A program made the translations under genes and the position numbers. From the NCBI GenBank assembly GCA_045632305.1, contig JAZQWL010000032.1, forward strand, positions 39,393-103,392: DNA of 64,000 nt. The letters are read 5' to 3'. Shown here piece after piece: positions 32,934 through 59,335 of this stretch. This DNA comes from Eubacteriales bacterium. GTDB lineage: Bacteria; Bacillota; Clostridia; Oscillospirales; CAG-272. Position 1 is the stretch's first letter; every line of letters starts with the position of its first letter. Under the pieces are notes generated by a model. The model was not told where the DNA came from and did not search any database. It saw nothing but the letters and a program-made list of their open reading frames with translations.

Positions 32934-33009
32934 GCTGATATGGCTCAGTCGGTAGAGCACGTCATTGGTAATGACGAGGTCATGGGTTCGATTCCCATTA
33001 TCAGCTCCA
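32934..33009 (+). tRNA. tRNA-Thr (anticodon GGU), CCA encoded
   Basis: Acceptor stem GCTGATA/TATCAGC, D-loop AGTCGGTAGAG, anticodon stem CGTCA/TGACG with loop TTGGTAA, T-arm GGGTTCGATTCCC, discriminator T, then CCA. Confidence 0.9.
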
Positions 33010-40568: not shown

Positions 40569-41482
40569 CCGTCGGAGATTCTGTACGTCACAGGCGCAAG
40601 CTTCTTGATCCTACGTTCGATCTCGACCGCACGCTCCCCGTAAAGAGAGAGATAATAGCTCGCCATCGAGGGCTCGTCCTCAAGCCACACAAAAGAGGCA
40701 ATCAGAAGCGGAAGCAATGTGCAAAGCTCCTCGTCAAGATCTATCACCGTATCGTCACTCGCAGCATCATTTTCAGCATTTAACGACGCGGGCTTTCGCC
40801 TATAATGCACCTTATAGCAACCGCGCATTGAATACGGCAAAAGAATGATACTGCCGTTCTCAACGTCGTATTTGCCGCAAAGTCGCTTATTATTTTCATC
40901 CTCCGAAATGGGAGGAGAATCGAGAGAAAGGAAATCAGGAACGAGAGCCGCAACGTCATATCTCGTATATGGTTCAAATGCCGGGATGTCCTCCTCGCGG
41001 CTCGAATAAAGATCTCTGTAGATCGCAACGTTCTTTACCGAATAGAGATATTCACCGGCAAAAACAAGCCGCACGCGGCCGCTGACAAACTCTCCATCCT
41101 TCTTTATAAACCCTCTGTAAGGGATAAATCTGCGATTAGACGAAAGCTCGATAGCGCCGATGGTTATCCATTCACCGTTCTGAGGATCATCGTCCCAAAG
41201 CTCAATGTATACGATACCGTCCCCGTCCGCCTCAAAATAAAATGCCCTTGCGTCTGCGGCATCAAATATAAGATCTTCCGAACGCTCGATCGGTGAGAAG
41301 GTGTTCGCCATAACGAGATTCACCATTGGCTTATGATTAATAACGTACGTGCTCATAGCAGGGCGTATCGCGCTTACCTGCATGATCGCCCTGTTTGCCG
41401 CAAAATAAAATCTTTCGTCATCTTCGAGGTTGCTCTCAAAGCCGAGCTGAGAGACCTGGTTATAAAGTTCAGATACTCTCAT
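40562..41482 (-). CDS. Head-tail adaptor / tail tubular-A-like protein
   Basis: 306 aa, immediately downstream of the major capsid gene, with SD AGGAGGG. The call rests on position only. Confidence 0.4.
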   Translation of the reverse strand: MRVSELYNQVSQLGFESNLEDDERFYFAANRAIMQVSAIRPAMSTYVINHKPMVNLVMANTFSPIERSEDLIFDAADARAFYFEADGDGIVYIELWDDDPQNGEWITIGAIELSSNRRFIPYRGFIKKDGEFVSGRVRLVFAGEYLYSVKNVAIYRDLYSSREEDIPAFEPYTRYDVAALVPDFLSLDSPPISEDENNKRLCGKYDVENGSIILLPYSMRGCYKVHYRRKPASLNAENDAASDDTVIDLDEELCTLLPLLIASFVWLEDEPSMASYYLSLYGERAVEIERRIKKLAPVTYRISDGW

Positions 41483-41495
41483 ACCGCCCTCCTAT

Positions 41496-42542
41496 TTAAG
41501 CGATCGCGTCTGCGTTTGCTACAGCGCTCTCAGAATTAACTGCGCGAAGGATATGCTTCCAGGTTGTGAAGCCGACGCCGAAACGGCAGTAACCATTCCA
41601 GTAATAATTTCTGTTGTGGTCGTCAACGCCGCTTGTAATATCAAGCTTTACACGGTTGAAGAACATGTTACCAAGGAGGTTCTCGTTTGCCTCGGAGGAC
41701 ATAACCATGATCTCGTCCTTGTCGGATTCCCAGTAATCAAGAACTACGAGAGTCCAGTTACCGTACTGGGTATTGATGTCATTGTAATTGGAGCCCGCAA
41801 CTCTCTCGGTACCGATAACCGCCTTAGCCATAAGCTCAAGATCGGGACGGTTACAAGGAATAACGAGCGTGTCTGCAGTATAACCGAGAACATCGCCGTT
41901 TTCATCCTTGAAGTTACGAAGCTTGTTTGCAAGAAGCGCAAGCGTCTTCTGGAATGTATCAACGTCAGCAGTAATATCACCGTAGAAGTAATTGGACTGT
42001 GTCTGGCCCGCCATCTTGTCCGTGAAATATGTATGCTTGTTGTGGAAGAGAGGAAGCTTGTCGCCGGTTGTAAGATCTACCGTAGACTTATTGAATGTAA
42101 AGCTTGCACCCGTCGCGTTGATAAGCGCCTGCGCTGCGAGCTTGATCTTCGTCTTGTAGTACGCTCTCACGAACTTCTTGGGCTTGTTCTTCATGTTTGC
42201 ACCGATACCGAACTTTGCGTCCTCTGCCATTTCGCGTGTAATCTTGAATTCCTTTGCGAATGTAATGTGAGAGATTGTCTTGTCGTATGTCTTCTGAACT
42301 GTGTCGTCTTCAGCGTTCTCGCCCTCACCCTTTGTCATGAAGGTATCGAAGTCGGATTCGCCCATGATCGTTTCTGCGTAACGGTTAGACTTTTCAACGT
42401 TGAAGAGAACGTCAAGAATAGTCTTTTCCTTCTCGCAAAGATTAGATTCGTTTTCGATGAGCGCCTTGATGGGATGCTCAAACTTGCCAAACATCGGGTC
42501 GTTCTTGCCCGACATCTTGCTGTAGATAATGTTTTCTGCCAT
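41496..42542 (-). CDS. Major capsid protein (HK97-fold candidate)
   Basis: 348 aa, directly after the scaffold-like gene, with strong SD AAGGAG. Size and composition are typical of major capsid proteins. Confidence 0.7.
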   Translation of the reverse strand: MAENIIYSKMSGKNDPMFGKFEHPIKALIENESNLCEKEKTILDVLFNVEKSNRYAETIMGESDFDTFMTKGEGENAEDDTVQKTYDKTISHITFAKEFKITREMAEDAKFGIGANMKNKPKKFVRAYYKTKIKLAAQALINATGASFTFNKSTVDLTTGDKLPLFHNKHTYFTDKMAGQTQSNYFYGDITADVDTFQKTLALLANKLRNFKDENGDVLGYTADTLVIPCNRPDLELMAKAVIGTERVAGSNYNDINTQYGNWTLVVLDYWESDKDEIMVMSSEANENLLGNMFFNRVKLDITSGVDDHNRNYYWNGYCRFGVGFTTWKHILRAVNSESAVANADAIA

Positions 42543-42563
42543 TTCACTTTTCTCCTTTTACTT

Positions 42564-43475
42564 TTAATTGGCTGTTTTTTTATACAAGGCCTGTATTTCC
42601 TTGTCGCTTTTATCAGGGAAGATCTCTCTCCAATACGTCAGATCCGCCTTGCTCATGTTTACGGAATTATCCTTTGAGCCCTTCGGAACTGTAGAACGGA
42701 GATGACTCTTCGACTCATGCTGCGCTTTTTTCTTTACCGCGGTTGCTACGGTGTTTCTTATGCCATCGGGATTTGCCGCGGCATAAGCTTCTTTTGCGGA
42801 AAAGCCGGCATCACGTGCACGCGCAAATTTTACAAGCACGTCGCGCGGAAGCTCGCGTACGTCGCTATATTGCTTTGTCTCCGGGTATGCCGCATGAAGC
42901 TCTGCTATGTCTGCGCGCGCAGTATCCTCAAAGGCCTGTCTTTTTACGCGCTCCTGTTCTGCTTCCTCTGCCTTCTTTTTGGCATAATCCTCGAGAGAAG
43001 ACCCCTCTGCCTCTGCAGCGATCGACATCAATCCCTCGACAACATCGTCGTCCTTGACATTGACGCCCATCTTGGCAAGCGTTTCCTTGCCCTGGGCCTT
43101 AATTCTTCTCAATTCCGCCTCAAGCTGAGCTATACGAACGTCCTTGGAATCAGAAGTATCCTTCGGTTCCTCGGGCTCCTCCCCGTCCGTATTTTCGGCG
43201 TCGGTGTCAGACTCGTCTACATCACTGTCCTCGTCTTCATCCTCGCCCCCGCTCGATTCTTCCCCGCCGTCGGATTCTCCGTCATCATCGTTGTCCCCGA
43301 ACTCTTCGGTAAGGTAATCATCCTCACCTTCATCGAAAACAACGTCGGGGATTATAATGTTCCCGTCCTCGTCGTACTCGAACTCGTCCTCCTCTTCAGA
43401 CTCATCATCAGTCTGACTGTCGGCGTCTTCAAGATCGTCGAGATCTTCATCGAGCATTGCTGCTTCAATTTCCAT
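42564..43475 (-). CDS. Scaffolding protein candidate with about 110-aa polyacidic N-terminal tract
   Basis: Start MEIEAAML at 43475 after GGAGGAAAG. An Asp/Glu-rich tract is followed by the coiled coil IAQLEAELRRIKAQ. The gene lies upstream of the capsid gene. Confidence 0.6.
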   Translation of the reverse strand: MEIEAAMLDEDLDDLEDADSQTDDESEEEDEFEYDEDGNIIIPDVVFDEGEDDYLTEEFGDNDDDGESDGGEESSGGEDEDEDSDVDESDTDAENTDGEEPEEPKDTSDSKDVRIAQLEAELRRIKAQGKETLAKMGVNVKDDDVVEGLMSIAAEAEGSSLEDYAKKKAEEAEQERVKRQAFEDTARADIAELHAAYPETKQYSDVRELPRDVLVKFARARDAGFSAKEAYAAANPDGIRNTVATAVKKKAQHESKSHLRSTVPKGSKDNSVNMSKADLTYWREIFPDKSDKEIQALYKKTAN

Positions 43476-43529
43476 TTTTCTTTCCTCCGTTTTTTTCTCT
43501 GTACCTTGTGCTATACGCACAATAGTTTT

Positions 43530-43649
43530 TTACTTACCGCCTCTGAGGTCGTCACCCTTGACCACATCTGCCTTAGGCGAATTCTTTACGCTGTTAGGCG
43601 CCTTGATAACGCCGCCTTCATTGGTGGCGAATCTGTTATTCTTCGACAT
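43530..43649 (-). CDS. 39-aa ORF with strong SD (MSKNNRFATNEGGVIKAPNSVKNSPKADVVKGDDLRGGK)
   Basis: Hand-translated. GGAGGT lies 7 nt upstream of the ATG, and the ORF sits between a terminator and the scaffold gene. Confidence 0.45.
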   Translation of the reverse strand: MSKNNRFATNEGGVIKAPNSVKNSPKADVVKGDDLRGGK

Positions 43650-43675
43650 AGCCCCTACCTCCTTCTGCAAGATTT

Positions 43676-43729
43676 ATATAAAAAACAGAGCCACGCACAC
43701 GGAAACTGTCTTCCGATAACGTGGCTCTG
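43676..43729 (-). terminator. Strong intrinsic terminator after the Com-like gene
   Basis: 10-bp stem CAGAGCCACG/CGTGGCTCTG (43686-43695 / 43720-43729), followed on the minus strand by TTTTTT. Confidence 0.75.
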
Positions 43730-43753
43730 TCTCTTGGACTCTGGCCTGATGCT

Positions 43754-43939
43754 TTATTTTTCACTTGAACGTTCTCCGTTGGCAACAACCTCCCACAGCA
43801 TGCTGCATCTTCGGCACTTAAAGGTAAGCCCAACAATAAAACTTTCCTTCCTTACGCCTACGCCGCGCACGCGCTCGTTACAATGTGGGCAGATGAGCTT
43901 CGTTATATTCGCCCCCTCTGCGGGAATTATCTTAAGCAT
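43754..43939 (-). CDS. Zinc-ribbon protein, Mu Com-like (61 aa)
   Basis: MLKIIPAEGANITKLICPHCNERV...LTFKCRRCSMLWEVV has two CxxC pairs spaced as in Com-type zinc fingers. SD GGAGGA lies 7 nt upstream of the ATG at 43939. Confidence 0.55.
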   Translation of the reverse strand: MLKIIPAEGANITKLICPHCNERVRGVGVRKESFIVGLTFKCRRCSMLWEVVANGERSSEK

Positions 43940-44081
43940 TGTTAGATCCTCCAAAATAAAGATTTCCTCTACAAGATATATAATAACATAGTTAAAACCT
44001 CAAATTGTCGCAACTTATTGCAGTTTTTTGTAATATTTGTGCATTTTAATGAACAACTCAAATAATTTTGCAACAAATGAA

Positions 44082-44115
44082 ATGCCGAGGTACCCCGTTT
44101 GAGATCTCTCGGCAT
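44082..44115 (-). terminator. Hairpin 6 nt after the giant-ORF stop
   Basis: Stem ATGCCGAG/CTCGGCAT (44082-44089 / 44108-44115); in the minus sense it is followed by TTCATTTGTT. Confidence 0.5.
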
Positions 44116-44120
44116 AAATA

Positions 44121-52586: not shown

Positions 52587-54437
52587 TTACCCCGTGATTC
52601 CAAAGAGCTTGCAAATACGATTATATCCCGAGCTTGATTCCCCCGGAACTCCTGCAAGCTTATGAATATTGCCCTCATTCGTCTTGTAGTAAAGCTTACC
52701 GTTGTATGCAAATATAGTCTTATTAGATATATCGGCAGCCGCACTATAAATATCAGGATTGTCCGACTTTGAAATTTGGCCGTCATATTCAACCTTGTAG
52801 CGCTTTATTTCTCCTCCATCATTCATTTCAAAGATAATATTTCTGCCGTCGTTTTCGTTTCTTTCTCCCGAAGCAAGTTCGAGCCCGCTATAAGTAGCCG
52901 CCGAATATTTCTTATCGAAGGCCGCCTGAGCAGCGTCCTTATTTTCCTTTGACAACCATTTATTTGATTTAATATCTTCCAATTCTTCCAGAGCATCGCT
53001 GCGTGACATTTCAGATCCGTCTTCTCTAAGGAACGTGGCGCTAAACACATCATTATACTTTTCTTTTAACTGCTTAAGCTGTGTTCCTGAAATTCTGCCA
53101 CTAACGTGTGCACGATTAACTTCGCTAATATCGAACTGATCTGTACCCAAAAGCGCGTAAAATACTTGATAGTTCTCTTCCTGCACGGCGCTCTTTCCTG
53201 CCTTGGCCACATCTGTAGCTGCAGATATGATCGATTCTCTTTGATCATAAGTGAGATTAGTGTTTTTCATAAGCGCGTTCAACTCATCAATAGTATAATC
53301 TCCTGACTTAGCATATCCAAGCAAGACATCAAACTCAGCGGTACCCTGACTCGCCTTACTTTCTTCTTTTGCAGAATGAGAAGAATTTATGACTGAGGTT
53401 ATCTGCTCAGGAGTAAGGCCCCTTCCTTCTCCAATGCTGCGAAGCTCTTCGTCGCTGTATTTACCGCTTTTCGCCAATTTAAGCACAGTCTCATACGCTT
53501 CCTGGTTTGCCTTGATATCTTTCTCGCTCTTCGACGTCTCATAAGTGTTTGTAATTTCCGCAATCTGAGTGTCATCAAGCCCCGCTTCTTTCGCCATTCT
53601 CGTAAGAACCTCAGGGCTGTACGTTCCCGAAGCTGCCGCCTCTATAAGCGTCTTATAAGTAATATCCTTGTTCTCTTCAAATTTGAGCATTCCCTCGAGA
53701 TAAGTTGTCTTAGCATCCATAAGCGCGCTGTCTCTTGCTACCTTGGCGTCAAAGATTCCCTTGTTTGCTGTTTCCTTAGCTGTAGCGTTCGCTCTCATCT
53801 CCGCCTCTCTGGCTTCTCTCTTTGCGGTTGCCGCCTGAGCGTTAGCTCCTTGCACCTCGGCTCTCTGTGTTGCATACGCTCTCGAAGTCAGATAATCAGC
53901 GTATCCGGAACCCGAAAGCCCCATGCTTCGCAACGCCTCTGCCTGCTTGCCGTATGTAGCTTTGTTGAAATCGTAGCTTGCCTGCCCGTCAATAACACCG
54001 CGCTGTCGCTCGGTTTCCGCCCTCTGCTCAGCAGCTTCTCTTTCCTTTGCGTTAAAAGATTCTGCATTGTCAAGATATCCGTTCCAGAACCGCTCATAGG
54101 ATTGGTAATTACTATTAATAATTCCCTTCTGTTCATCGTATCCTTCGGTTACGTAATCACCATATGTTTTAGAGGGTTCACTACTGCCGGTTTCACCGCT
54201 ACCAGTTTCACCGGTTTCACTGCCCGATCCCGTGTCGGACCCTCCGGTTAAATCCTCGGAAGAAACCTCTTCAGAAGGGGTTGAGGGTGTTCCAGAGCCC
54301 GCTGACACAAGTATGTCCTTGGGATTGCCCGGTGCAGTTGTCACCGTAGACGCGCCACCAACCACCGAGGCGCTTTCATTCCCATCATAACGATTAATTA
54401 CTACGCCGTCTATTTTTTCTTTTTTCGCTCTTCCCAT
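52587..54437 (-). CDS. Portal-adjacent virion protein with internal about 50-aa repeats (616 aa)
   Basis: One-nt overlap with the portal stop (TAATG). Contains a Gly/Ser/Glu/Thr low-complexity tract and three to four repeats of the A(K/A)SG.Y(S/T)..EL type. Confidence 0.7.
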   Translation of the reverse strand: MGRAKKEKIDGVVINRYDGNESASVVGGASTVTTAPGNPKDILVSAGSGTPSTPSEEVSSEDLTGGSDTGSGSETGETGSGETGSSEPSKTYGDYVTEGYDEQKGIINSNYQSYERFWNGYLDNAESFNAKEREAAEQRAETERQRGVIDGQASYDFNKATYGKQAEALRSMGLSGSGYADYLTSRAYATQRAEVQGANAQAATAKREAREAEMRANATAKETANKGIFDAKVARDSALMDAKTTYLEGMLKFEENKDITYKTLIEAAASGTYSPEVLTRMAKEAGLDDTQIAEITNTYETSKSEKDIKANQEAYETVLKLAKSGKYSDEELRSIGEGRGLTPEQITSVINSSHSAKEESKASQGTAEFDVLLGYAKSGDYTIDELNALMKNTNLTYDQRESIISAATDVAKAGKSAVQEENYQVFYALLGTDQFDISEVNRAHVSGRISGTQLKQLKEKYNDVFSATFLREDGSEMSRSDALEELEDIKSNKWLSKENKDAAQAAFDKKYSAATYSGLELASGERNENDGRNIIFEMNDGGEIKRYKVEYDGQISKSDNPDIYSAAADISNKTIFAYNGKLYYKTNEGNIHKLAGVPGESSSGYNRICKLFGITG

Positions 54438-56443
54438 TATGCTTTACCTCCGTCAATAATGTTCTGCAAGTACGACTCGTACTTCGCACGCTTGTCTATC
54501 TCTCCCTGGAGATATCCTTCATATTCCTGGTGCTTCGAATTCTCCTGCTGAAGAGCCGCAATCTGCTCCTGTTGCTGTTCAAGCTGTTGCTGTCTTCTGA
54601 TCTCTTCACGAAGACGCTCGACGTTGTCACGAGCGAACGGATAATGCGCCCGCTCCATGTTAAGCCAGAAGATAAGCTGTGTCTGCGGCATCTTGGGATC
54701 ACCGTAAGCGCCGCCCGCAAAATTCTGTCTATTCTCCTGCCAGAGCATTTCTCTTGAAGAATCAAGATCGGCAGAAGCATCGCACGAGAACAGGAACTCG
54801 TCGTTATAATAATATTCTCCCGCCTCATCGCGCTCTATGAAATCATAACGATTGAACATAGTGTTTTGCATCGTGCCGAAAGCATCTTTATACGCCGCAG
54901 GGCGCGGCTCGTCCGCATAAGCGAGATAATACTGGAAAATGATCTTATCTATCTCCGCATACGCCGCATTCTTCATCTGGCGCTTTGAATTAAGTCTGCC
55001 CGCTGCCTGCTGGATCTGAAGCTGCTTCGCCTTACCGGATTGCGCCGAGCTGTCATACTGCCCCTGGAAGGACGCAGATATGCCGAGAATTCTCTTCGCC
55101 TGATCATAAAGGCGCTCTGCTTCAGATACGTCCTGCCCCACGTTGACCGCGAGATCGACTCTTCCGTAAAGGTTATATGTGCTCGAATCCGCGCGGAAAA
55201 CCTTTTCAAACAGCGAGTTGTCGAGCTCCATATCGAAATCCTTCGGGACAATAGGGTACACGCCCGAGCTCATTACCTTTTTTATGATCCTGGATTCTAC
55301 CTTGTTTATCGCCTGCTGCTGCGGGCGAATGAACTCGCAATCAGATTGTCCGAGAAGACTGTCCTCTTGAGATGTATTCTTTCGAATAACCACCGGGAAG
55401 ACCGACGGGCGGTAATACGGTAATCGTGTCGGCTCGACCTTCGGTACCTCAATGTCAACCATAAGCGGCACGGGGTAATTATTCACGTCATATTCAAACG
55501 CAGGAGATCCGTCGGCTTCCGTTGCCTGACGTCTCTGCGACTGCATCACTACCTGACCGTCCTCGACAACCTCACTCTCTGCAGGTATGACCGTGCCGTC
55601 TGCAAGGGCAATATCTCGCTCAAGCTCCTCGTAATCCTGGCTCTTAAGCTCGTAGTCGCTGTCTTTGTTTCCCTCACACGTACAAATCTCGCGGCGCTTG
55701 CCGCACTTTTTGCAGACGTAAACCTTTCTTGCGTAGTAATCGTCAATGTCGAGAAGCTCGGTGTCACCGCTCCAGATGTACTGACAGATCTTTCCTTCGT
55801 CATTTTTGTAATAGCACACGTAAAGCGTCGCCGTCTTATCGTCCGCGTTCTCATCGGACTCTGCCTCATCTGCGATCTCAAGCGAAACATTATATTTTCT
55901 TACGATATCCTCTTTAGTTGTCTCAAACTGGATGAAGCAGTACTCCATGTCGGATATTTCGTAAATATTCGGCTGACCCGTAAATCTCGAGGGCGAAAGA
56001 CATGTAACCTTGATGTCACCCACCGAATTATGTGTGACAATGGATTCATCCCACTCTATAAGCCACACACTGCCACCGTAAATGGGTGTGAATCGCTCGT
56101 CCATGTCGTTGTGCTTCTCAAAAGGAAGCTCGTTTCTCTTGTTGCGCAGAAGCGTTTCAATCGCCTTTGCCCCACGCTCGTTCTTCTCACTCCACATCTT
56201 GGGAGAAACGGACGGATTCGGTATGTATCCCGTTACCTGCGACTCAATAAGCTCGTAAGTAACGTTTCTGACGTGGAGAGCTTCCGCTTCCTCGCCGTTT
56301 GCACCGACTATCTTATTGCTTCCCTTGTACTGCTCCATATGCTTGACAAGACTATTATGAAGCTCCTCTGTTGCACTCCTTGCTTCTCTGTACAGATCCT
56401 GGAAGAAGGAAAGCTTACTTGTTCCCTCTGTGTCAATTCTCAT
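54437..56443 (-). CDS. Portal protein
   Basis: 668 aa, ATGA-coupled to terL, with a glutamine-rich C-terminal coiled coil. The call rests on position and size. Confidence 0.75.
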   Translation of the reverse strand: MRIDTEGTSKLSFFQDLYREARSATEELHNSLVKHMEQYKGSNKIVGANGEEAEALHVRNVTYELIESQVTGYIPNPSVSPKMWSEKNERGAKAIETLLRNKRNELPFEKHNDMDERFTPIYGGSVWLIEWDESIVTHNSVGDIKVTCLSPSRFTGQPNIYEISDMEYCFIQFETTKEDIVRKYNVSLEIADEAESDENADDKTATLYVCYYKNDEGKICQYIWSGDTELLDIDDYYARKVYVCKKCGKRREICTCEGNKDSDYELKSQDYEELERDIALADGTVIPAESEVVEDGQVVMQSQRRQATEADGSPAFEYDVNNYPVPLMVDIEVPKVEPTRLPYYRPSVFPVVIRKNTSQEDSLLGQSDCEFIRPQQQAINKVESRIIKKVMSSGVYPIVPKDFDMELDNSLFEKVFRADSSTYNLYGRVDLAVNVGQDVSEAERLYDQAKRILGISASFQGQYDSSAQSGKAKQLQIQQAAGRLNSKRQMKNAAYAEIDKIIFQYYLAYADEPRPAAYKDAFGTMQNTMFNRYDFIERDEAGEYYYNDEFLFSCDASADLDSSREMLWQENRQNFAGGAYGDPKMPQTQLIFWLNMERAHYPFARDNVERLREEIRRQQQLEQQQEQIAALQQENSKHQEYEGYLQGEIDKRAKYESYLQNIIDGGKA

Positions 56444-57972
56444 AATTCTGGTTCTCCGTATCTTTTTATCATTTCTTGCCGTTCTCTCTCGCTTGCGTGC
56501 CTATAGTCCTCAAGCAGATCGGGACGGTATTTTACCTTTTTCTTTTTCGGCTCCTCGGGAGGATGCGTCCAATAAATAGCGAAATATCGCAATGCGTCGG
56601 GCGCATGCGTCAGCTCATGAGGATCCTTTTTACAATCGTCGGGACGCCGCTCATCCACAAGAAGCTGAGGAAGCGTCCTAATTAAATGCTTGCACGTGCG
56701 GAATATCTTCAACCGCGCAAAGTCCGTTCCGTCAGGTGCTCTGCGCTTCTTCAGTAATTCCTTAATAGCCAGCCAACCTGCCGCACGGTCGTTGTTCGAC
56801 TTCACAAGATCCAGACCGTTTTCGTAGAATAAAAGCGCCCTGCTCTTTCCGGACTCCAGGGAAGAGTTCCACATATCGGGAGGAGCGAGTCTCACTCTCG
56901 GAGGATACCAGGCGGAAACCCGCTGATCATCTCCCTCACACAGCTCCGCTTCCTTTACCCTTGCCGCGGCGTCTGATATGATAAGCCCACTTTCATATAT
57001 CTCATGAAATACGTAAGCGACGTTCTCGTTGTCAATAGCGACCTTGTAATGCGCAAACATATCAAGACCGTAGTCCATAGTGTTATAGACCGTCCAATCC
57101 TTCGGGATTGGAAACGGATCGCAGGTGTGCAAATTATAGTCAAACTCCGAAAAATAGCTTCCACCAAGCGCGGAAAGCGCCTCTTCGGCTGTTCTCGGAT
57201 ACTCCTGCTTGACCTTTACGCCGAGATCTCTCGCAGTTCTCTCGTACCATTCCATATCTCTTCTCGGGTCCGTAAATACCGATAGGAATATCTTGTGAAA
57301 GTCGTTCACTTCAAGCCACAAACGCTCGAACAGTGTTCCCTTCATGATCGTTGACAATCCGATAACCTTACCGCCAGTAGGACGGTTAATGGTAGGATAT
57401 GCCGACGTCCATATTTCCTCGGCGTATTGCTGGAACGCCCACTCGTCAAGTAGTACGATATTACCCGTGAATGAACGGCCCGCAGAGGGCGACGCCGGGA
57501 ACGCCTTAAATACTGAAATTTTGCGCTTATCACGACCGTAAATGTATATCGCGGAGGTTGTCGACTCCCACGCGATTCCACCGCCCGCCAACAGCTCAGG
57601 CATGTTCTCAAGAACTACCGATACGCGTCGGACAAGCTCCTTGGCATCCTCTTCCGTCTTCGATATCGCAACGACCGTGTGTCCGAGATTGAATATAAGA
57701 TCGTGCGTGCAAAAATACAGCGCGATCCACGTAATTCCAAGCTGACGTGCCTTCAATATCAAATTGAGTCTGAATGTGCCGAAATCAAGTAGCGCCTGGT
57801 TCTGCGCGGGCCAGCCGTGAAACGGTATAATGATCTCAGGAGAGTCCTTATCCTCGATAACGCAATAGTTATTTGCCCAATAGACGATATCTCCGCGGCA
57901 ATACTCGAATTCGGCCTCTCGGATACTCTGAAGATAGCTGCCAAGATCGGGCCCCTTATCCTTCTTCGCCAT
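56440..57972 (-). CDS. terL: Terminase large subunit
   Basis: Walker-B-like IVLLDEWAF and a C-terminal RNaseH-like nuclease region. The start at 57972 follows GGAGGGAG. Confidence 0.85.
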   Translation of the reverse strand: MAKKDKGPDLGSYLQSIREAEFEYCRGDIVYWANNYCVIEDKDSPEIIIPFHGWPAQNQALLDFGTFRLNLILKARQLGITWIALYFCTHDLIFNLGHTVVAISKTEEDAKELVRRVSVVLENMPELLAGGGIAWESTTSAIYIYGRDKRKISVFKAFPASPSAGRSFTGNIVLLDEWAFQQYAEEIWTSAYPTINRPTGGKVIGLSTIMKGTLFERLWLEVNDFHKIFLSVFTDPRRDMEWYERTARDLGVKVKQEYPRTAEEALSALGGSYFSEFDYNLHTCDPFPIPKDWTVYNTMDYGLDMFAHYKVAIDNENVAYVFHEIYESGLIISDAAARVKEAELCEGDDQRVSAWYPPRVRLAPPDMWNSSLESGKSRALLFYENGLDLVKSNNDRAAGWLAIKELLKKRRAPDGTDFARLKIFRTCKHLIRTLPQLLVDERRPDDCKKDPHELTHAPDALRYFAIYWTHPPEEPKKKKVKYRPDLLEDYRHASERERQEMIKRYGEPEL

Positions 57973-58669
57973 TATCTCCCTCCGCAGATACCGCGGCAAT
58001 GCGTGCGCCAACTCTCTTTATAAGCGCGAGATCTCGCTCTGATATGCCACTGACGTTTGATTCAATGACCTGTCGCTCCTCCTTGCCGTAATCGTTAGTA
58101 AGCACGAATTTTGCCATATTTGCGTTAAGCTTGCCGGAGAGCGCGCCCGCCTCCATAAGACCGCCCGCCCATTCCTTGGCCCTCTGATATGCCTTGGCAA
58201 AGCGCTCGTGCTTATATTTTCCGTCCTCGGTTACTCCTGCCCACGTCTTCAGCGCCGAAACCGATACACCGATAGACATAGCAAACGTTCCCATCGTCGG
58301 AAATTCTCCCATGATCTCTATCGGAGTCTCCGATATAAGATTGCCGTCCTTATCAAATTCTCTGCGATATTCCACCTTCGTTAATGGCCGTGAAAAGAAC
58401 GCTATCAGATCATCGGCATATTTATCCTGGTATTTGTCCGAAAAATCATTCCCCTTCGCAAACGTTCCGTCGGGATTTCTCTTGCGATCGGATGCCGCAT
58501 TCTTCTTTTTTTCACCGCACTTGACGCCCGAATTTTCACCTTTTACGGCGCTTGATTTCTTTGTGGAGGAATTCTTCTCCTTCGGCGCTTTTAAGCTCTC
58601 ACGGGCATTCTCGCCGCCCTCCTGCGCATTCTGCGCGGCATTTTTAATATCTGTTTCCTTGTTGATCAT
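57956..58669 (-). CDS. terS: Terminase small subunit
   Basis: Lys/Ser-rich N-terminal tail, then an HTH-like TMGTFAMSIGVSVSALKTWAG and KFVLTNDYG. It overlaps terL by 17 nt. Confidence 0.7.
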   Translation of the reverse strand: MINKETDIKNAAQNAQEGGENARESLKAPKEKNSSTKKSSAVKGENSGVKCGEKKKNAASDRKRNPDGTFAKGNDFSDKYQDKYADDLIAFFSRPLTKVEYRREFDKDGNLISETPIEIMGEFPTMGTFAMSIGVSVSALKTWAGVTEDGKYKHERFAKAYQRAKEWAGGLMEAGALSGKLNANMAKFVLTNDYGKEERQVIESNVSGISERDLALIKRVGARIAAVSAEGDNGEEG

Positions 58670-58693
58670 ATTGACTCCTTTTTCTCTCCGTTT

Positions 58694-58741
58694 AAAAACA
58701 AAAAGGAGCCATATCGTCCCGCTCTTGGAACGTTATGGCTC
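58694..58741 (-). terminator. Intrinsic-terminator-like hairpin about 16 nt upstream of the terS RBS
   Basis: Stem GAGCCATA/TATGGCTC (58706-58713 / 58734-58741) with additional inner pairing; in the minus sense it is followed by CTTTTTGTTTTT. Confidence 0.6.
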
Positions 58742-58808
58742 TCACCTCTGTGGGTATATGGCACTTTATTATGTATATTTTTAACCAGGCGGCCTGCCTG
58801 CTATTTTT

Positions 58809-58817
58809 ATAATATCA
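58809..58817 (-). promoter_or_regulatory. Extended -10 element (TGATATTAT), candidate late promoter
   Basis: The minus strand reads gTGaTATTAT. It lies in the only long non-coding gap (58670-58978) of the phage region. Confidence 0.35.
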
Positions 58818-58978
58818 CAAACAAACCGCCGTTTTGTCACAACTTATTTAAAAATTCCACGTTTTCGCGCGCGTGTGCCCGCGCCCGCGTATATCGAAGC
58901 CAATTCGGTTATCGGCTTACTATAGAATAGGCACCGCTCTGACTTGATATTTATTTATGTAACCGCTCTTCTCATGAG

Positions 58979-59335
58979 CTATATAAGTGATAACCGCTCG
59001 GCAATATCATAGAGAAATTTTCTCTTTCGCATGTAGTATGCATTTTTTGATATCATTACCATCGCGGGAGAATGCTCGTATCCGCGCTTTTCACAAATAT
59101 CCTCAAGCACGATCTTGCGAAGTACCTCCTCAATCGGTTCAAGCGCCTCGTCAACTATCCTGTTAAGCTTCCTGCATGTCTGAAGCGCCGCAAGCTCATA
59201 TATCTCACTGCACTCCTTCCGCTCGAGATTTTTCATAACCGCCGCTCTGCGCGGATAGTCCGCACACACCGCTCTCACCACGTCAACGACCGTACGCGGC
59301 AGCTCATACGCCTGATATATCTTCGTTTTCGGCAT
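58979..59335 (-). CDS. Late-gene transcriptional regulator candidate (RinA/ArpU/sigma-region-4-like)
   Basis: 118 aa, the last gene before the terS gap. The C-terminal HTH-like segment ISKNAYYMRKRKFLYDIAERLSL resembles sigma70 region 4 and RinA-type activators. Confidence 0.5.
   Translation of the reverse strand: MPKTKIYQAYELPRTVVDVVRAVCADYPRRAAVMKNLERKECSEIYELAALQTCRKLNRIVDEALEPIEEVLRKIVLEDICEKRGYEHSPAMVMISKNAYYMRKRKFLYDIAERLSLI

Follow-up and report, generated by a model that had tools for sequence, protein, structure and literature searches.

A Com-like zinc ribbon and a duplicated terminator element: a possible late-gene switch in a Firmicute prophage

The stretch of DNA analysed here (64,000 nucleotides, hereafter the window) contains a prophage from a spore-forming Firmicute, in which a gene for a 61-aa zinc-ribbon protein lies directly upstream of an intrinsic terminator that forms part of a conserved RNA element, a second copy of which occupies the leader of the small terminase gene (terS). 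This arrangement resembles the site of the phage Mu protein Com and therefore suggests an undescribed phage late-gene switch, in which a Com-like zinc ribbon would bind a new RNA motif in both late leaders and convert termination into read-through, a proposal that we make tentatively and rate at somewhat less than an even chance. We base it on the anatomy, duplication, conservation and covariation of the element, its linkage to the zinc-ribbon gene and its match to the published Com target.

Late genes of Firmicute phages are mostly controlled by promoter activators (RinA, ArpU, LtrC), and we know of no description, for these phages, of terminator-based late control with a dedicated RNA element. 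The module is compact—a 61-aa protein and a 65-nt RNA that occurs twice per genome—and is conserved across dozens of phages from gut metagenomes. If the switch operates as proposed, the protein would be the first Com-type regulator of transcription termination and would represent a new class of protein-dependent antitermination in prophages of gut Clostridia. Should RNA binding be borne out, the Com paradigm would widen from translational unmasking to transcription antitermination, the element would constitute a new RNA family, absent from Rfam, and it would become clear how terminase and capsid operons are kept silent until a threshold is reached.

Two late leaders with a shared terminator element

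All genes at the zinc-ribbon locus lie on the minus strand, as do two full matches to a late promoter (AATAAGTTGYGACAA box plus extended −10), the only ones in the window. Copy 1 (58809..58848; box AAATAAGTTGTGACAA, extended −10 TGATATTAT) lies upstream of terS and is conserved in relatives L063–L082. Copy 2 (43980..44019; box AATAAGTTGCGACAA at 44019..44005, extended −10 TGTTATTAT at 43988..43980), with a transcription start predicted near 43973, precedes the zinc-ribbon gene and is kept in about 30 distinct relatives. An earlier, sequence-only reading of this DNA had picked out TTGCGA-17-TATGTT here, and that string is found at 44013..43985 (minus strand), but conservation among relatives points to TGTTATTAT, not TATGTT, as the −10 element, which places the TTGCGAC box 22 nt upstream of the hexamer. 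As the zinc-ribbon gene is headed by copy 2 of the terS-operon promoter, it would start a second late operon. In our reading the late genes form two transcription units, each opening with a late promoter and a leader that ends in a conserved RNA element.

The first unit would comprise terS (57956..58669), terL (58011..56440), the portal gene (56443..54437), a 616-aa ORF and, last, a gene for a polyvalent MuF-type head protein of 2819 aa (44121..52580; Pfam MuF_C 55 bits, ART-PolyVal 52 bits), the homologue of which in L001 carries PBECR3; all are on the minus strand. A minus-strand hairpin 3′ of this giant ORF (44082..44115, followed by UUCAUUUG; dG −19.7 kcal/mol, z −4.0) probably marks the end of the unit; close relatives have a hairpin of different sequence there, some with a clean T-run, and many other relatives have no hairpin. 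The second unit would run from the zinc-ribbon gene through a 39-aa micro-ORF (43530..43649), a gene for a scaffold-like acidic protein of 303 aa (42564..43475, identified by its position between micro-ORF and major capsid protein, with conserved synteny) and the major capsid gene (41496..42542; PF25209, phrog_371) to the tail genes.

The covariance model R1 finds the RNA element exactly twice in the 64-kb window, once per late-operon leader and both times on the minus strand: copy 1 at 58701..58764 (56.9 bits) in the terS leader, and copy 2 at 43683..43747 (57 bits) 3′ of the zinc-ribbon gene. It opens with a single-stranded GCCA, continues with a 3-bp covarying mini-hairpin (P1) whose loop contains CC-N2-4-GAG, and ends in an intrinsic terminator, the base of which, AGCC:GGCU, is invariant. 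In copy 2, GCCA (43745..43742) is followed by P1 (GUC-CAAGA-GAC, 43739..43729), a terminator stem from GAGCC (43727) to 43686 and a U6 run (43685..43680) that extends 3 nt beyond the covariance-model match. The hairpin at 43735..43680 (core 43729..43686 plus U6) has a dG of −34.6 kcal/mol (z −8.2), a stability reached by none of 200 shuffles, and was overlooked by a simple terminator scan because its stem is two-tiered. Copy 1 has GCCA, P1 (ACC-CACAGA-GGU, 58755..58744), the terminator GAGCCAUA...UAUGGCUC and a U-run (U5GU5), with a dG of −26.5 kcal/mol and P1 present in the predicted minimum-free-energy structure; its leader contains no ORF, and hence no zinc-ribbon ORF. Terminator copy 1 is followed directly by terS and copy 2 by the micro-ORF. 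Judged by sequence, both copies are predicted intrinsic terminators, each with a stable GC-rich stem-loop and a U-run.

Across 36 distinct instances of the element, GCCA, CC, GAG, AGAGCC and GGCU are all invariant or nearly so, and P1 covaries around them: one pair is AU in 15, GC in 10, GU in 6 and UG in 1, another is UA in 25, CG in 8 and GC in 1, and the loop-closing C-G is retained in 34. Paired cells make up 92% of P1 against 30–48% in slid controls, its covariation score was matched by none of 500 shuffles, and RNAalifold predicts the identical hairpin unprompted. This noncoding sequence stays conserved even though synonymous sites are saturated. Searches of Rfam 15 returned no match at E ≤ 1 in 41000–46000, noise only in 58500–59100 (E ≥ 0.15, far under gathering scores) and, at gathering level, a single tRNA and nothing else in the whole window. 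P1 comprises 3 bp only, and its covariation is partly clade-structured.

Past the terminator, the micro-ORF has a strong Shine-Dalgarno sequence (AGAAGGAGG, 43666..43658) and an ATG at 43649; its pattern ATN[KE]GG[VM]IK[AS]P...KG.DLR.GK is conserved in all relatives, among which synonymous changes dominate, indicating purifying selection, and it matches no family in Pfam, PHROGs or NCBIfam. Since the gap between U-tract and Shine-Dalgarno (12–35 nt in relatives) leaves no room for a promoter, capsid-gene transcription must cross the terminator. A bypass promoter inside the terminator is unlikely: −10-like hexamers occur in the A/T-rich stretch past the U-tract with no conserved −35, and the covarying upper stem overlaps the position. 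A sigma-54 reading of GTGCCA through its reverse complement (TGGCAC) was dropped, as the window reads GGCCA and lacks the downstream GC element.

The position of the micro-ORF start also bears on translational activation of the Com-mom kind, proposed in the sequence-only reading, in which the protein would bind the stem-loop and unmask the start codon. A small zinc ribbon encoded 5′ of a hairpin and a Shine-Dalgarno-led ORF would suit such a scheme, as would a weak predicted long-range pairing of GGCC (43745..43742) with GGCU beside the AUG. However, Shine-Dalgarno and AUG lie outside the hairpin, 15–37 nt past the U-tract, so that unmasking is unsupported; the hairpin with its U-tract has every feature of an intrinsic terminator; the flanking pairing amounts to 4 bp, with an extension that relatives do not conserve; and the element recurs before terS at a different spacing, with no zinc-ribbon ORF. 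Neither a mom-like gene nor a gene overlap such as that of com and mom was found at the zinc-ribbon locus. We therefore consider translational activation decidedly improbable.

The zinc-ribbon gene and its linkage to the element

The zinc-ribbon gene (43754..43939, minus strand) is the first cistron of late operon 2 and lies within its terminated leader, its ATG at 43939 preceded by GGAGG. In the 61-aa product (MLKIIPAEGANITKLICPHCNERVRGVGVRKESFIVGLTFKCRRCSMLWEVVANGERSSEK; CPHC-X21-CRRC) the cysteines occupy positions 17, 20, 42 and 45 with a spacing of CX2C-X21-CX2C; all four are invariant in the 51 sequences of the family, and AlphaFold2 models the protein as a four-stranded zinc ribbon (pLDDT 88). 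Codon changes among seven relatives fall mostly at third positions (up to 36 of 57 differ, against 5–9 at positions one and two), which identifies the ORF as a real gene.

Relatives were collected through protein-anchored loci, as an exact 28-nt pattern of the motif shared by close relatives proved too strict: it was absent from IMG/VR and JGI metagenomes and matched once in GTDB genomes, in a MAG labelled ‘uncultured Clostridium sp.’. At the nucleotide level the region matched none of 50,697 GenBank phages. A TerS-anchored locus search found no relatives; one anchored on TerL supplied those for the terS region.

Among relatives with enough sequence, the zinc-ribbon gene is syntenic and universal, being present in all 36 capsid-anchored loci with enough upstream DNA; those capsid-anchored loci examined for the element carry it too. 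In IMG/VR zinc-ribbon loci the element lies 9–35 nt past the stop codon (40 of 40), and 19 of 19 close TerL loci with sequence there have the copy in the terS leader. Some 60 distant TerL loci (41–48% identity) have no element and, by contig name, no detectable zinc-ribbon gene. In L145, the homologue of which is 30% identical, the triad of gene, terminator and micro-ORF is retained, and the element is reduced to GCC-AAU-GAGCC (that is, CC-N3-GAG), now incorporating the first bases of the terminator. The distance from zinc-ribbon stop codon to stem ranges among relatives from 0 to more than 45 nt, and ribosome-coupled attenuation, suggested by the nearness of stop and terminator, was for that reason rejected as a general mechanism.

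The universal presence of the gene contradicts the earlier interpretation of the locus as a moron-like cassette, in which an accessory gene, equipped with a promoter and terminator of its own and inserted among the late genes, would break up a continuous operon and act autonomously, for example in a lysogen. The features from which that interpretation was built do exist (the 61-aa CPHC...CRRC ORF, two hairpins, a T-run and a promoter-like sequence), and a promoter–gene–terminator layout between hairpins, inside a late region, is shared with lambdoid morons. Lambdoid morons, however, vary in presence and often differ in composition, whereas here the gene is at the same place in every relative examined, evolves at core-gene pace and resembles its neighbours in GC content (0.48–0.50 against 0.45–0.55), AT-rich sequence being limited to the promoter spacer. 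The promoter and terminator expected of a moron are both there, but as copies of other parts of the genome: the promoter duplicates that of terS, and the strong terminator, seen earlier as the gene's own insulator, is the 3′ part of the element repeated before terS. A moron is thus scarcely credible, and this corrects an annotation error in which promoter–gene–terminator units in late regions are taken for morons.

Affinity to Com

The RNA recognised by Mu Com is a short hairpin with a variable stem, a C-G closing pair and CC(N)2-3GAG in the loop, next to an inhibitory hairpin, which Com melts (PMC6483171). The zinc-ribbon locus resembles com-mom in both partners: a four-Cys zinc ribbon of about 60 aa is encoded just 5′ of the putative target, and that target, a short CC-N-GAG hairpin, shares the variable stem and the C-G closing pair and immediately precedes a larger inhibitory hairpin (PMC6483171). 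Judged from the alignments, both window copies contain a candidate Com-type RNA site, as do the 36 distinct instances, with covariation. Because CC-N2-4-GAG mini-hairpins arise by chance (3.75e-4 per nt), the match, found post hoc and with a chance of about 1e-3 to 1e-2 for its position, is suggestive. There are differences, too: the inhibitory hairpin is here an intrinsic terminator, whereas in Mu it hides a start codon; each genome has two targets, in the packaging and capsid leaders, against one at a DNA-modification gene in Mu; and the host is a Firmicute, not a proteobacterium.

For the protein, the likeness to Mu Com claimed in the sequence-only reading holds for size but not for Cys spacing (X21 against X16). 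It has the size and layout of Com-type proteins (roughly 60 aa, one CX2C...CX2C zinc ribbon), together with a conserved N-terminal extension in which it differs from Com. The Com-family profile search suggested in that reading came back empty for the window protein, which has no match to PF10122 (Zn_ribbon_Com; gathering score 22.9 bits) even at E ≤ 10. Six of ten syntenic orthologues score 14–19 bits, under the cut-off, and seven of the 51 members of the wider family match at E < 0.01 (best E 4.5e-6). A custom Com HMM gave the window protein 3.5 bits, and hhalign aligned the family with Com at a probability of 79% over 43 columns with a gap of 5–6 residues, a signal driven by the Cys core, with no homology established beyond it. 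The C-terminal EHPTE...CGKRE motif of Com is absent from the family in profile–profile comparison.

Generic zinc-ribbon families in Pfam score equal to or above Com, and PHROGs and NCBIfam held nothing specific. Searching the PDB with the zinc-ribbon profile returned chance C2H2 and ribbon matches only, Foldseek comparison of two models with BFVD gave generic zinc ribbons and no Com, and no solved Com structure was found for comparison. The sequence affinity of the family to Com is thus marginal; together with it, the CC-N2-4-GAG hairpin and its C-G closing pair favour the Com-like reading.

Read-through at the late terminators and its rivals

Lying in the leader 5′ of the terminator, the zinc-ribbon gene would be expressed from a short terminated transcript. 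Our judgement is evenly balanced on whether a Com-like RNA-binding protein made from this transcript controls read-through at both late terminators. Much as Mu Com does, the protein would bind the CC-N-GAG hairpin, together with the neighbouring GAG in the 5′ arm of the terminator, and thereby block or melt the terminator base; RNA polymerase would then continue into both operons, with their packaging and capsid genes, giving a feed-forward timer or threshold for structural-gene expression. In this scheme we infer binding to the element, suppression rather than enhancement of termination, and a role in timing.

Parts of this scheme have precedents. At lambda pR′-tR′, as at both operons here, a strong promoter-proximal terminator stands between late promoter and late genes, separated from the promoter by a short leader. 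Whereas lambda Q attaches to promoter DNA and travels with RNA polymerase, and tR′ can do without a conserved sequence, here a conserved covarying sequence lies in the RNA, at and overlapping the terminator; the module occurs in two copies, and one of the leaders encodes the candidate factor. No Q family was found among neighbouring small ORFs (Pfam, PHROGs, NCBIfam); the prophage extends past the window. As in the RAT sites of BglG, SacY and LicT, and in HutP, a conserved RNA site within a leader overlaps the terminator 5′ arm, and a bound protein would keep the terminator from forming. The differences are that the candidate is a zinc ribbon and not a CAT/PRD protein or HutP hexamer, that no alternative antiterminator helix is evident and that the setting is phage late-gene control.

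The same anatomy would serve a protein that binds the element and strengthens termination, whether as negative feedback or as a lock against leaky late promoters in the lysogen. RNA-binding attenuation proteins that promote termination, such as TRAP and PyrR, exist, and a leaky promoter would yield the zinc-ribbon protein first because the terminated transcript encodes it. Yet both terminators are so stable by themselves (−34.6 and −26.5 kcal/mol) that they need no help, the capsid, scaffold and terminase proteins are needed in bulk with no other promoter downstream, and the known action of Com is to open a neighbouring hairpin. Strengthened termination is accordingly an improbable alternative to read-through.

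Alternatively, the modules may be real but run by another factor—the product of a 118-aa ORF, an elongation factor of the host or an antiterminator that loads at the promoter and acts processively—or be constitutive attenuators, with the zinc ribbon serving, for example, in head assembly or in late activation by binding DNA at the TTGYGAC box. In favour of this, two conserved cis elements occur together with two or more uncharacterised proteins; Com-family proteins carry the NCBI name ‘DNA-binding transcriptional regulator’; the zinc-ribbon gene is surrounded by head genes; and its product has no specific structural neighbour. P2 Ogr and P4 Delta are likewise small phage zinc-binding proteins, which act at multiple late promoters with a conserved box in common upstream; they are needed for late-operon expression and contact RNA polymerase at the promoter, with no link to a terminator. 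The zinc-ribbon protein has no Pfam match to Ogr_Delta; an Ogr/Delta-like role is retained as a rival.

Against control by another factor, the gene is always immediately 5′ of the element, even in the 30%-identical relative, and the element contains Com-type recognition words. The 118-aa ORF (58979..59335, minus strand; phrog_11237, of unknown function) lies immediately 5′ of late promoter copy 1, the classic position for an activator of the terS promoter, which would leave the RNA element as an orphan site for the zinc ribbon. We thus think control by another factor rather unlikely, and keep read-through driven by the zinc ribbon as the preferred explanation. The 118-aa ORF, kept at the same position in L063–L082, is a candidate late activator by position only; no source gives it a name, with nothing specific in PHROGs or NCBIfam. 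As a second co-occurring candidate factor it is a counterpoint to the proposed switch, as are the sub-threshold Com score in Pfam, the lack of a specific fold neighbour and a remote homologue in another early-region contig (L143) with no element within 9 kb of sequence.

A structural role for the zinc ribbon is further opposed by homologues in early or replication regions, distant from head genes. On one such contig, that of L018, with an early-gene context, a related terminator (AGGCCAGAC...GAGAGCCACA...TGTGGCTCTTT; 26 bits) lies directly 3′ of a Cro-like gene; if the switch exists, remote homologues may act likewise at early terminators.

Layout of the locus and its late promoters

Window positions 1 to ~32,000 hold host genes (phosphoglucomutase, BipA, NrdD, UvrC and the sporulation protein YqfD), followed by a tRNA gene (32934..33006, plus strand), the likely integration site, and by a minus-strand phage module that continues past the window's right end and is a prophage of a spore-forming Firmicute. 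The sole genome match to the motif of the close relatives was a MAG labelled "uncultured Clostridium sp.".

All genes at the locus lie on the minus strand. TerS, TerL, portal and a 616-aa ORF precede a giant ORF (2819 aa, 52580..44121) encoding a polyvalent head protein of the MuF type that includes an ADP-ribosyltransferase domain (MuF_C plus ART-PolyVal); its homologue at the related locus L001 has 2999 aa and carries PBECR3 instead, so toxin/effector domains vary among relatives. There follow a hairpin (44115..44082; −19.7 kcal/mol, z −4.0), an AT-rich spacer, the 61-aa zinc-ribbon ORF (43939..43754; GGAGG Shine-Dalgarno, motif CPHC-X21-CRRC), a two-tier hairpin of very high stability (43735..43686; −34.6 kcal/mol, z −8.2) with a U6 run directly 3′ (43685..43680), a 39-aa micro-ORF preceded by AGAAGGAGG (43649..43530), an acidic scaffold-like ORF (303 aa, 43475..42564) and the major capsid gene (42542..41496). 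The sequence-only reading had picked out a real and interesting locus, and its description was borne out in every detail once the ORFs and both hairpins had been located and folded. A small hairpin, UUGUGC-GUAUA-GCACAA (−8.9 kcal/mol; 43506-43522, minus-strand transcript), lies between micro-ORF and scaffold gene; in relatives this spot is taken by a hairpin whose sequence differs.

A box, AATAAAT-TGCGAC-(A/T)AA, is common to all relatives upstream of the zinc-ribbon gene, with an extended −10, TGnTAnnAT, 13-14 nt downstream. The TATGTT first proposed as −10 overlaps this conserved element, but the conserved hexamer is TATTAT, with invariant A2 and T6 and TG in front, and we therefore take TGTTATTAT (43988..43980) as the −10. 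In a scan of the window, the box and the extended −10 occur together at exactly two sites, one upstream of the zinc-ribbon gene and one upstream of terS (58841..58809). As this second copy heads terS, the zinc-ribbon gene opens a late transcription unit of its own, the second; the first plausibly ends at the lineage-specific hairpin behind the giant ORF (its sequence differs in close relatives, and many others lack one). The terS promoter (AAATAAGTTGTGACAA...TGATATTAT), with its RNA element and terminator, occupies 58700-58848 on the minus strand, and its leader begins with a 5′ hairpin, CAGGC-aggcc-GCCUG. At the distant locus L145 (60-180), promoter (GGACAATTTGA...TGATATAAT) and zinc-ribbon start are separated by a ~110-nt, strongly self-complementary leader (GGGGTGGAG...CTCCACCCC); the window's leader is ~35 nt.

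Two conserved small genes and a duplicated RNA element

Only six close clusters of the zinc-ribbon protein (75-100% identity) were found in an index of 5.8 billion proteins, and all their contigs keep the order giant ORF, zinc ribbon, 39-aa ORF, scaffold, capsid. Third codon positions take the overwhelming share of substitutions in zinc ribbon and micro-ORF alike. A profile search of 1.8 billion representatives extended the family to ~50 clusters (53-94 aa), in which only the four cysteines are invariant and one glycine nearly so. Both small ORFs were present in 36 of 36 capsid-anchored IMG/VR loci with enough upstream DNA (41 loci in total; capsids 63-82% identical, with a single outlier at 25%), and the arrangement is retained by homologues at 49-54% (L012, L015) and ~30% identity (L144, L145). 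Judged by these alignments, both small ORFs are real genes and not accessory ones. Morons are variable in presence and often deviant in composition; the zinc-ribbon gene had been framed as one, yet among relatives it is neither variable in presence nor deviant in GC, which equals that of its neighbours, leaving that label scarcely credible.

The micro-ORF (43530-43649, minus strand) matched no known family, name or structure. It belongs to a lysine-rich, conserved 39-45-aa family (ATN[KE]GG[VM]IK[AS]P...KG.DLR.GK) that is always the first gene past the terminator, ahead of the scaffold gene.

In intergenic alignments, the lower stem of the two-tier hairpin and a block just 5′ of it are invariant, yet the genes on either side are nearly saturated at synonymous sites. 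Across ~30 distinct loci the order is GCCA; a 2-3-nt linker; the mini-helix P1, [a][b]C-C(N)2-4GA-G[b′][a′]; 1-2 nt; and a terminator in which GAGCC and GGCUC flank an upper stem and loop that vary, followed by a U-run. A second copy, GUGCCAUAUACCCACAGAGGUGAGAGCCAUAACGUUCCAAGAGCGGGACGAUAUGGCUCCUUUUUGUUUUU (58764..58700), lies downstream of the second promoter in the window's terS leader, which is free of ORFs. That copy recurs in 19 of 19 TerL-anchored relatives with sequence available (TerL at least 74% identical), most of which also match the promoter pattern, and is absent from ~60 loci at 41-48% TerL identity.

Base pairing is well supported by 36 distinct instances: the first P1 pair is AU (15), GC (10), GU (6) or UG (1), the second UA (25), CG (8) or GC (1), and the closing pair C-G in 34; the terminator base AGCC:GGCU does not vary, and its adjoining pair alternates between C-G (19) and A-U (16). 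Paired cells amount to 92%, compared with 30-48% after shifting the partner by 1-3 columns, and none of 500 shuffles reached the covariation score. RNAalifold, unprompted, arrived at this P1 and terminator too. Searched with a covariance model made from those instances, the window gave exactly two matches, at 57.0 and 56.9 bits; the next best were only antisense matches of the same hairpins. The element had no match in Rfam 15 and is new; by this comparative evidence, what had been read as a strong terminator belongs to an RNA element that is conserved and present in duplicate.

Gene and element travel together. Scanning IMG/VR with a zinc-ribbon protein pattern yielded 40 loci, all with a model match (42-67 bits) starting 9-35 nt past the zinc-ribbon stop codon, and none of the 40 contigs falls in the distant-TerL group that lacks the motif. 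L145 (~30% identity) lacks P1, its element being GCGCC-AAU-GAGCCAUG...UGUGGCUCUUUUU; there a CC-N3-GAG unit arises from the 5′ GCC together with the GAG that belongs to the terminator, which suggests that P1 of the main family keeps the outer GCCA and GAGCC side by side.

Likeness to Com and candidate control by read-through

The protein had been likened to the Com activator of phage Mu, a good guess at its kind: by sequence the protein is not Com, and by target design it resembles Com. The window protein did not match PF10122 and scored 3.5 bits against an HMM of 17 Com sequences. Six of ten syntenic orthologues reached 14-19 bits against PF10122 (cut-off 22.9), among many generic zinc-ribbon families that scored just as well, and 7 of 51 wider-family members matched at E<0.01 (best 4.5e-6). 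Alignment to Com by hhalign gave 79% probability over the cysteine core with a 5-6-residue gap and left Com's conserved C-terminus unmatched; the cysteine spacing is X21 here and X16 in Com. An AlphaFold2 model (pLDDT 88, four strands) had no specific neighbour in BFVD, and no Com structure has been solved. By these measures the zinc ribbon is not Com.

Com's target hairpin carries CC(N)2-3GAG in its loop, has a variable 3-4-bp stem with a loop-closing pair that is "invariably C-G", and adjoins a translation-inhibition hairpin that Com binding is thought to melt (PMC6483171); we confirmed the site at the mom start in the Mu genome. P1 shares this design (CC-N-GAG loop, variable stem, C-G closing), and the only invariant words of the whole element are CC and GAG units (GCC-A, CC, GAG, A-GAG-CC). 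The resemblance is striking. Such mini-hairpins occur by chance at 3.75e-4 per nt in the window, with a prior of roughly 1e-3 to 1e-2 for one abutting a given terminator, and the comparison is post hoc and concerns a short motif. Within the zinc-ribbon mRNA, I-P-A-E-G codons (UUCCCGCAGAGGG; 43914-43926, minus strand) match the CC-N4-GAG mini-hairpin pattern too, and all six close relatives retain the Pro-x-Glu codons as CCN-NNN-GAG, either by chance or, possibly, as an autoregulation site.

Com-mom-type unmasking of the micro-ORF, as first envisaged, fares poorly against the relatives: the hairpin includes neither its Shine-Dalgarno nor its AUG, and terS too is preceded by the element, making translational control very unlikely. 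In relatives only 12-35 nt separate the U-run from that Shine-Dalgarno, a space in which no promoter fits, and transcription of micro-ORF, scaffold, capsid and downstream genes must therefore cross the terminator, as must that of terS and terL. The zinc-ribbon gene lies upstream, so a ~290-nt terminated transcript would suffice to make the protein. The most economical model would have it bind, in each of the two leaders, the CC-N-GAG hairpin along with the GAG next to it at the base of the terminator, and suppress termination, imposing a feed-forward delay or threshold between late promoter firing and synthesis of packaging and capsid proteins. Com's logic, a protein opening a neighbouring hairpin, would here have moved from a ribosome-binding-site trap to a terminator. 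Layout, conservation and gene-element linkage are established by the comparisons; binding, the sign of the effect and a part in timing are inferred. We regard it as an even call that a Com-like zinc ribbon, made from a terminated leader, controls read-through of both late terminators; that it reinforces termination seems improbable. The duplicated module of late promoter, leader and terminator carries a new conserved RNA element, and one of its leaders contains a Com-like gene; the two parts of the proposed switch, a 61-aa protein and a 65-nt RNA, are directly testable.

Another factor might control the leaders while the zinc ribbon acts elsewhere, for example in assembly, or as an activator that binds DNA at the TTGYGAC box. 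We consider this possible if somewhat unlikely; a role for the zinc ribbon is read from sequence, and a candidate factor co-occurs. A 118-aa ORF (58979-59335, minus strand) directly upstream of the terS promoter has a homologue there in 17 of 17 relatives with sequence at that point (TerL at least 74% identical) and is conserved at this position in relatives at 41-48% identity. Its only family match is phrog_11237 (function unknown), and its location recalls that of the RinA/ArpU-type late activators in Firmicute phages. A virion-structural role is argued against by remote homologues in early/replication regions, beside DUF551 and HTH genes (L018) or ParB (L143); a third and weakest homologue (P0055, at L020) adjoins a primase-type zinc-ribbon gene. 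No element was found in the 9 kb available at L143. L018 has a related terminator, AGGCCAGAC-32 nt-GAGAGCCACA...TGTGGCTCTTT (26 bits), immediately behind a Cro-like gene. In this unrelated phage contig (L018 4929-5010) the zinc-ribbon homologue P0015 closes an operon that includes a DUF551 gene, and the terminator after the Cro-like HTH gene shares the words GGCCAGA...GAGAGCCACA/TGTGGCTCTTT; this hints that some members of the family act early, in an N-like manner.

In some relatives the zinc-ribbon ORF itself reaches the element: its stop codon falls within the P1 loop at L048 (872-940), and it overlaps GCCA at L012 (3649-3660), where translating ribosomes would, in both cases, occlude the site.
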